This document shows positions 35,426-36,652 of a DNA stretch of 51,139 nt, in pieces. The DNA comes from a virus (lineage: Duplodnaviria; Heunggongvirae; Uroviricota; Caudoviricetes). Below the pieces are notes generated by a model that did not search any database, was not told the DNA's origin, and saw only the letters and a program-made list of their open reading frames with translations. A program made the position numbers and the translations under genes. Each line of letters opens with the position of its first letter. The stretch's first letter is position 1. The stretch lies in the IMG/VR virus record IMGVR_UViG_2744054912_000002; one strand, 5' to 3'.

Positions 35426-36652
35426 TTAATTACTGACAGTTTCAGGTTTCGGGAAACTGAACAGTAAATCACGGTAGTATTCGTATTGTTTCTGGCGCAA
35501 CTCGATTTCACGCGGGAGACCTTCAGTGATGGAGTTGGTCAGGGTGTCGAATTTATCGAGTATTTCGACAATGCGAGCTTGTTCTTCTGAAGGTGGTACA
35601 GGTATTGGGAATTTTAAAAACATTGGTCGACGAAGTGAGGTAACCGATGAACTTACTGATGCTTTTTGAATATAGGTAAAAAAATATGCTGTTATATAGT
35701 GATATACAAATCGCGGATTCATAAATGCATTTGGGACAATACGATATGCTCTCTGATGCAAAGCATATTTACCTTTAGCGTAATGAAATACCTTCCCCAC
35801 CCCGGCACCATCTCCAGCTGTAATGATTGCTGTTTCATCAAAATCAAATACATTTAACTTTAATGGCTCACGTCCACGTGCATAAAAAATATATTTGCCA
35901 TGTTCTATAGCATCTTGCGTATCATGGTTACCTGTTCCTATAACAGCCACTTCCCCCAAAGTCTTCCACTCAACCTCACCCTCTTTAAAACTCAACAACT
36001 GGTCACGATAGTAGTTGTACTGTTTTTTACGCATGTTAAGCTCAGCGGTAAGCTCAGCGGTAAGCTCAGCGGTAAGTGCAGTAAATTTATCCAGAATCCG
36101 AACGATTTCAGACTGGATGGCAAGGGATTTCTCCGGAATATCCGGGCAGGGGATGGGGATTAAGAGCTTTTTTAGGTCGCCCATTGGTAGACTAATTACC
36201 GGGTTGCCGACAATTTTTTTGCTATAGTCTTTAACTATTTTACTTGATTGTAATAAATACGATAAAAATCTAGGCGCAATTTTTTCCTTAATTGGTTTGA
36301 TAGTGTAAACGCCTTCTTTGATATTCCAATTTATAGGATTTTCTTCAATTACCGCGATGCGTCCAACCGTGCCGGTTCCGGAGAACAATATATCTCCAGC
36401 TTCTAAATTAGAACGACCATTTATTATTTTTAATGCTCTATCATTTACTCTGTCTGTTTTATCAAGAAAGACAACTTTGCCATTCTGGATCTCACGAACA
36501 GTTACGTAATATCCTTGGGCATCTAATGTATTTAAGCTAAAATTTTGGCGTGGGTTCAATCCCGTTTTTAAGGAATGGATAACTTCTCCCAACATCTTCC
36601 ACTCAACCTCAACCCCATCCAGCAATTTTCCCAGATAACTTAACTCGCTCAT
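35426..36652 (-). CDS. hsdS: Type I restriction-modification specificity subunit HsdS (type IC)
   Basis: 408 aa; two target-recognition domains separated by central conserved region PIPCPD...[30 protein letters not shown]. Confidence 0.95.
36040..36075. repeat. Three tandem 12-bp repeats encoding (TAEL)3 in the HsdS central conserved region
   Basis: gctcagcggtaa x3 on + strand (ttaccgctgagc on the coding strand). Confidence 0.9.

Follow-up and report, generated by a model that had tools for sequence, protein, structure and literature searches.

Based on our analysis, we propose that the 12-bp tandem repeat inside the hsdS gene of this viral DNA is very probably the TAEL spacer repeat of a type IC HsdS protein, whose copy number would set the spacer of the recognition sequence and in which units would occasionally be gained or lost; taken as a whole, this is our best explanation of the tract. 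The window (the whole stretch of 51,139 nucleotides analysed here) is, judged by its gene content, a P1-like phage-plasmid, and its hsdS is an ordinary specificity allele, as yet uncharacterised, of a system that is well known. The TAEL mechanism is textbook knowledge and has been known since the 1980s (1987-1992).

The TAEL tract and the HsdS subunit

The hsdS gene (35426-36652, minus strand) encodes a type IC specificity subunit of 408 aa, as recognised from the ORF, a Pfam Methylase_S match (E = 3e-38) and alignment to the EcoR124 specificity subunit (PDB 7bst_A). Tandem Repeats Finder reported a perfect 12-bp tandem repeat in it at 36037-36076, with 3.3 copies of the unit TAAGCTCAGCGG, 100% matches and a score of 80. 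On the coding (minus) strand the tract is CTTACCGCTGAG three times followed by CTTA, and its minus-strand reading is CTT ACC GCT GAG three times, then CTT. Translation gives TAEL three times, residues 194-205 of HsdS (nt 36038-36073, minus strand). The three tandem 12-bp copies that the earlier note had described in hsdS at 36040-36075, gctcagcggtaa three times, are this same tract read in another phase. The longest lag-12 self-match run reaches 28 in the window, whereas 200 shuffles gave a maximum of 11 and a mean of 7.5, so the TAEL tract is not a chance feature. An assembly artefact was also considered as the source of the repeat and was ruled out by the identical tract in independent assemblies.

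HsdS has the layout TRD1-CR1-TRD2-CR2, with type IC conserved regions and with the TAEL units in CR1. From the alignment with 7bst_A, the N-terminal target recognition domain TRD1 occupies about residues 26-162 (36167-36577); it is unaligned, and its boundaries were inferred from the alignment around it. It is followed by the central conserved region CR1, the TAEL-bearing helix (about residues 163-235; 35948-36166), the C-terminal target recognition domain TRD2 (about residues 236-348; 35609-35947) and the C-terminal conserved region CR2, the partner helix of the antiparallel coiled coil (about residues 349-408; 35429-35608), all on the minus strand. The conserved blocks 1-25, 163-250 and 297-408 (N-terminal, central and C-terminal) align with 7bst_A, and one lone 4-residue gap separates the two proteins, exactly at the TAEL tract. 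Translation and alignment thus agree with the earlier placing of the repeat in the central conserved region of HsdS. With three units, the 17 residues from LDKF to RKKQY in CR1 equal the 17 residues from LDKF to RQKQY in CR2. This equal length fits the statement in a review that three TAEL units are the “optimum” number (PMC3874165).

The recognition domains are a different matter. TRD1 is unrelated to the EcoR124 TRD1, giving no alignment to 7bst_A between the conserved blocks, and TRD2 has only weak similarity to its EcoR124 counterpart, being aligned from residue 297. The earlier note had found TRD1 unlike that of EcoR124; this holds, and the alignment shows that TRD2 differs too. Identity with EcoR124I or EcoR124II was ruled out on these grounds: with TRD1 unaligned and TRD2 weakly aligned, these are not the GAA and RTCG domains. 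Among matches covering only positions 1-695 of the query, TRD2 is common to many plasmid hsdS genes at 97% identity or more, there combined with other TRD1s. The window hsdS is 100% identical to the hsdS of AP027478.1 (4629-5855), the IncY plasmid pLR-13_1. Relative to the HsdS of E. coli E2348/69, the only residue change is N172I (window 36138), in the PCPDNPEK loop that immediately precedes the central helix and is otherwise conserved; the AP027478.1 protein has this change as well.

We suggest a mechanism for the tract that follows the known type IC enzymes. In HsdS, the CR1 and CR2 helices would form an antiparallel coiled coil with a recognition domain at either end. Each 12-bp unit would add four residues, about one helical turn, to CR1, and an added unit would move the recognition domains about 0.34 nm apart and rotate them by about 36 degrees, so that the half-sites and the methylated adenines would come to lie one base pair further apart. 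The three-unit enzyme of the window would be expected to recognise a bipartite site whose methylated adenines are separated by 8 bp, and a two-unit derivative would have the same half-sites with an N6 spacer. Since the units do not differ in DNA sequence, one of them would occasionally be added or removed through unequal crossing-over or by slippage during replication, which would create a new restriction/modification specificity in a single step. We infer that the window enzyme is active and that copy number in the window plasmid changes at a measurable rate.

Characterised systems provide the precedent. The target of EcoR124I, which has two TAEL units, is GAA N6 RTCG, and that of EcoR124II, with three units, is GAA N7 RTCG; EcoDXXI and EcoprrI have three units each. 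A single unit makes slightly more than one turn of the first dimerisation helix, and in EcoR124/EcoDXXI hybrids with an altered unit number the spacers shifted exactly as predicted (PMC3874165). The same review ascribes the gain or loss of units to unequal crossing-over at the repeat (PMC3874165). For type IC enzymes, the distance D between methylated adenines is given as 7 with two TAEL units and as 8 with three (PMC12707154 Table 1). That two versus three copies mean N6 versus N7, as had been claimed for the window repeat from its letters, is therefore well founded in EcoR124I and EcoR124II, in the hybrids (PMC3874165) and in the tabulated distances (PMC12707154 Table 1).

The hsd operon and its P1-like setting

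The operon runs in the order hsdM-hsdS-hsdR across 32188-38211, with all three ORFs on the minus strand. The hsdM gene (36649-38211) encodes the N6-adenine methyltransferase subunit of 520 aa (Pfam HsdM_N and N6_Mtase) and overlaps hsdS by 4 bp; a gap of 121 bp separates hsdS from hsdR (32188-35304), which encodes the motor/nuclease subunit of 1038 aa (Pfam HSDR_N, SWI2_SNF2, T1R_D3-like and EcoR124_C). HsdR aligns over its full length with the EcoR124I HsdR, 2w00_A (1-1038 vs 1-1038, 2275 bits), and HsdM with the EcoR124 M protein, 7bst_D (1-520 vs 1-520, 1158 bits). Subunit exchange is a hallmark of a type I family (PMC12707154), and the closeness of HsdR and HsdM to EcoR124I served here as a sequence proxy for subunit interchangeability. 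Taking these full-length matches together with the conserved blocks of HsdS and its differing TRDs, we regard the hsd locus as type IC (EcoR124 family) by sequence criteria, with another pair of recognition domains.

Among the known systems, EcoR124II (R124/3) is alike in gene order, in its near-identical HsdR (1038 aa) and HsdM (520 aa), in the conserved regions of HsdS, in having the 12-bp unit three times in CR1 and in the expected 8-bp distance between methylated adenines. It differs in that both window TRDs are others, so that the half-sites would not be GAA/RTCG, and in its carrier, which is the conjugative plasmid R124/3 and not a P1-like phage-plasmid. Three TAEL units and D = 8 are likewise found in EcoDXXI and EcoprrI, and the EcoDXXI locus shares P1-derived flanks with the window; the published specificities are TCA N7 RTTC for EcoDXXI and CCA N7 RTGC for EcoprrI. 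EcoprrI differs by the prrC anticodon nuclease inside its operon, which the window operon lacks: no prrC-like gene was found between hsdS and hsdR, where there are only 121 bp and no ORF is listed at the 80-aa cut-off. Identity with EcoprrI was ruled out by this lack of prrC. The AP027478.1 record names its HsdS “type I restriction endonuclease EcoprrI subunit S.” Because the operon is without prrC, this label is probably an automatic name transfer based on the conserved regions.

The hsd genes are surrounded by P1 genes, among them pmgS, pap, phd, doc, pdcB, lpa and pacA. By blastn to the P1 locus, the whole hsd cassette (32113-38311) stands, between pap and phd-doc, where P1 has 84483-87969 (pmgT to humD), and on either side P1 80372-84482 and 87970-91655 match window positions 28000-32112 and 38312-41997 at 98% identity. 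The GenBank record of P1 notes that the junction flanks are 96-98% identical to DNA flanking the EcoDXXI and R124/3 hsd loci, which makes the cassette site the classical home of type IC cassettes. The P1-like phages vB_EcoM-673R5 and phi456 have a type IC hsdS at the same spot, with other TRDs and three TAEL units each. In vB_EcoM-673R5 (L004 4773-10724), hsdR and hsdM are annotated in fragments; in phi456 (L005 7925-11921), the N-terminal part of hsdS is missing, and other ORFs, about 1.3 kb in all, lie between hsdS and hsdM.

Several other features of the window may be recorded. Repeat arrays at 8190-8270 and 9300-9401 (also 9446-9498), with the core GTGTGCTGG / CCAGCACAC, flank a 286-aa ORF (8381-9241, minus strand). 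The ORF is of repA size and lies between P1-type iterons; the arrays at 8190-8270 and 9300-9401 are presumably the P1 RepA iterons incC and incA. A further short repeat array is found just downstream of them. Three tRNA genes, Asn-GTT, Thr-TGT and one with a CAT anticodon, lie at 16981-17133 and 18565-18640 (plus strand), and such genes are expected for P1-like phages. An ORF of 1095 aa (13020-16307, plus strand) encodes a Dmt-like double methyltransferase with C5-cytosine and Dam-like N6-adenine domains, and has Hint and LAGLIDADG domains near its N-terminus. About 1023 bp of this region are missing from P1 and present in RCS47 and vB_EcoM-Ro157c2YLVW; from its domains, the insert looks like an intein with a homing endonuclease in dmt. 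Finally, an ORF of 505 aa at the window edge, beyond cre (49500-51017, minus strand), has PAS, HAMP and MCP-signalling domains; it resembles an Aer-like aerotaxis receptor and is cargo of a chromosomal type.

Among the closest known systems is the chromosomal one in the leuX island of EPEC E2348/69 (HsdS WP_001293053.1). The two hsdS genes are identical at 1226 of 1227 nt, including the three units, and the single difference gives N172I. The E2348/69 system differs from the window system in hsdR (97.1% identical overall) and hsdM (97.3%), whose outer parts are the more diverged, and in its location, being chromosomal and adjoining tRNA-Leu and McrBC. Across hsdR-hsdM, the ungapped comparison gave 134 differences in 6020 aligned positions. 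Only about 10 of these fall within 33939-37438, whereas the outer 250-bp bins of hsdR and hsdM have 7-20 mismatches each (about 3-8%). This distribution points to recombination in the recent past over a tract of about 3.5 kb, by which hsdS with its three units would have moved between the leuX-island system and a P1-like plasmid.

Probable recognition sequence

The E2348/69 allele gives a route to the target of the window enzyme. The long-read methylome of that strain has two almost fully methylated bipartite m6A motifs: CYYAN7RTGA / TCAYN7TRRG, with 579 sites and no REBASE match, and YTCAN6GTNG, which was already in REBASE for other strains (PMC8495745). In the E2348/69 genome, one single place matches a type IC hsdS, and it has three TAEL units. 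The classical hsd locus (hsd/ICR region) holds only an hsdR remnant, and a second type I system was not found in that region. In CYYA(N7)RTGA, the adenine of CYYA is separated by 8 bp from the one that faces the T in RTGA, which is the spacing of a three-unit type IC enzyme, and the motif shares the xxA-N7-RTxx look of the EcoR124II, EcoDXXI and EcoprrI targets. In YTCA(N6)GTNG the adenines are 7 bp apart, a distance that rules out a three-unit type IC enzyme.

Since there is one type IC hsdS place, with three TAEL units, and only the N7 motif has D = 8, we consider CYYAN7RTGA the likely target of the E2348/69-type HsdS; this assignment is by elimination. A non-IC system with D = 8 elsewhere in E2348/69, for example of type IA, is a possible alternative source of the motif. 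By way of the E2348/69 allele, CYYAN7RTGA is probably the target of the window HsdS too, and CYYAN6RTGA is the predicted target of a two-unit allele. The window itself contains 10 CYYAN7RTGA and 9 CYYAN6RTGA sites against about 11.5 expected; these counts are uninformative and give no signal of site avoidance. In searches of the literature for the HsdS accessions, locus tags and motif strings, the long-read paper on E2348/69 alone was found.

The suggestion in the earlier note that the recognised sequence is probably novel can be kept in part. The TRD pair differs from that of EcoR124 and is not biochemically characterised; the exact gene, however, is already in GenBank (AP027478.1), and the E2348/69 allele is probably behind a published motif, CYYAN7RTGA. 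If the assignment is true, this motif would add one more specificity to those of type IC, together with its predicted N6 counterpart.

Copy-number variation and its interpretation

The TRD pair of the window was found in six complete E. coli records. Four of these are E2348/69 assemblies, all with three units and with a protein one residue from that of the window (N172I). The other two, the Korean isolates Z1323HEC0423 and Z1323HEC0067, gave a match to the window hsdS that is 12 nt shorter. By alignment, the Z1323HEC0423 hsdS has two units and lacks one 12-bp unit relative to the E2348/69 allele, with no other difference; its protein therefore differs from that of the window by one unit and N172I. 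This allele (WP_024225533.1; P0002; 404 aa) is identical to the window allele in both TRDs and in the conserved regions, and with one 12-bp unit fewer its predicted target would have an N6 spacer and unchanged half-sites. In a large protein collection, the two-unit form is the commoner one for the window TRD pair, P0002 being on 143 contigs and P0003-P0010 adding more; an exact look-up of the E2348/69 HsdS sequence in that collection found no match.

The same collection contains further pairs. With the window TRDs, P0003 (TAEI-TAEL) and P0001 (TAEI-TAEI-TAEL) differ by the duplication of a marked unit, which, read from the unit order, is a second, independent event on these TRDs. In other TRD backgrounds, P0019 has two units and P0036 one, and P0106 has two and P0064 three; each pair is at least 97% identical outside the tract. 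The claim that the repeat is prone to unequal crossing-over, and that its gain or loss may switch specificity, gains support from these four natural pairs one unit apart as well as from the attribution made in the literature.

In a wider survey of 20,395 E. coli complete-genome records, the region was present at all in about 1,092; a two-unit junction query was matched end to end in 613, and 473 had at least 3.3 near-perfect units. The usable copy-number data are the 2-copy count, the ≥3.3-copy count and individual row spans, as the joining of overlapping pieces confounds the 1-copy, 3-copy and ≥4-copy junction queries. A rank-spread sample (n = 60) held about 30 two-unit and 25 three-unit alleles, one one-unit and one five-unit allele, and a plasmid sample was split about 28 two-unit to 25 three-unit. 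Natural alleles with 1, 2, 3 and 5 copies were thus found, and from these alleles three copies is an ordinary state of a tract that does change in nature. Near-binary copy number over about 1,090 records, together with the uniformity of lineages, fits rare evolutionary events rather than rapid phase variation.

Five perfect units are present in the ETEC1717 chromosome (L007 6040-6130) and in S30 plasmid C (L010 4020-4083). Both genes are IS-disrupted pseudogenes, by IS3 in ETEC1717 and by IS1 in S30 plasmid C; in the latter plasmid, hsdM is truncated as well. That five-copy alleles occur only in broken hsdS genes suggests that expansion is tolerated only once the gene is dead, and that it happens and is purged when hsdS is functional; with n = 2, this is anecdotal.

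How often the tract changes is where explanations part. It could be a fixed structural spacer, with a three-copy allele that is stably inherited and with changes too rare to be called a switch. This reading would account for the exactly three copies in all four E2348/69 assemblies and AP027478.1, for a copy number of essentially two or three over about 1,090 E. coli records and for the equal lengths of CR1 and CR2 at three units, the “optimum” (PMC3874165); three 12-bp units are, moreover, a short tract for misalignment or slippage. It is harder to reconcile with otherwise alike alleles one unit apart in four separate backgrounds and with the existence of five-copy expansions. The documented change from R124 to R124/3 in the laboratory also speaks against it, and the pairs one unit apart are a natural confirmation of that switch. 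Because the tract does change, the fixed spacer differs from our preferred explanation, a spacer repeat with occasional gain and loss, in rate only, and we consider it rather unlikely. At the other extreme, a high-frequency phasevarion, in which fast reversible 2-to-3 switching alters the host methylome and gene expression, is extremely improbable. Known phasevarions are long tracts of short repeat units, and the window tract is 3 x 12 bp. Copy number is uniform among strains of a lineage, mixed assemblies did not turn up among what are consensus assemblies, and the phage-plasmid location with an intact hsdR fits defence; these points weigh against such switching even though two- and three-copy states are both common in E. 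coli and repeat tracts between TRDs have been discussed as possible specificity switches, with TAEL cited (PMC7383803).

Repeat number would be without phenotypic consequence if the hsd system were inactive or decaying, and broken relatives do exist: hsdR and hsdM are fragmented in vB_EcoM-673R5, hsdS is truncated in phi456, and insertion sequences disrupt hsdS in S30 plasmid C and ETEC1717. The three window ORFs, however, have their full length and align co-linearly with the EcoR124 subunits of known structure, and the near-identical E2348/69 system resides in a genome with two bipartite motifs that are almost fully methylated. Decay of the window system is therefore very unlikely. Going beyond the spacer repeat with occasional changes, one might propose that two versus three TAEL units are an actively exploited toggle: P1-like phage-plasmids and the leuX island would swap hsdS cassettes through recombination and alternate between the N6 and N7 specificities often enough to evade modified phages or rival plasmids, and selection would cap functional genes at two to three units. 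The near-identical tract of about 3.5 kb suggests the cassette exchange, and the restriction of 5-unit alleles to pseudogenes suggests the cap. We nevertheless think this proposal doubtful.

Since the mechanism is textbook, the finding matters little beyond bookkeeping. The novelty is minor. It consists of an uncharacterised specificity, with a TRD pair to which the orphan motif CYYAN7RTGA of E2348/69 probably belongs and for which an N6 counterpart is predicted in the commoner strains with two copies, and of natural examples of the switch. The cassette also seems to be exchanged through recombination between a chromosomal defence island and phage-plasmids of the P1 type, which bears on the spread of restriction barriers.
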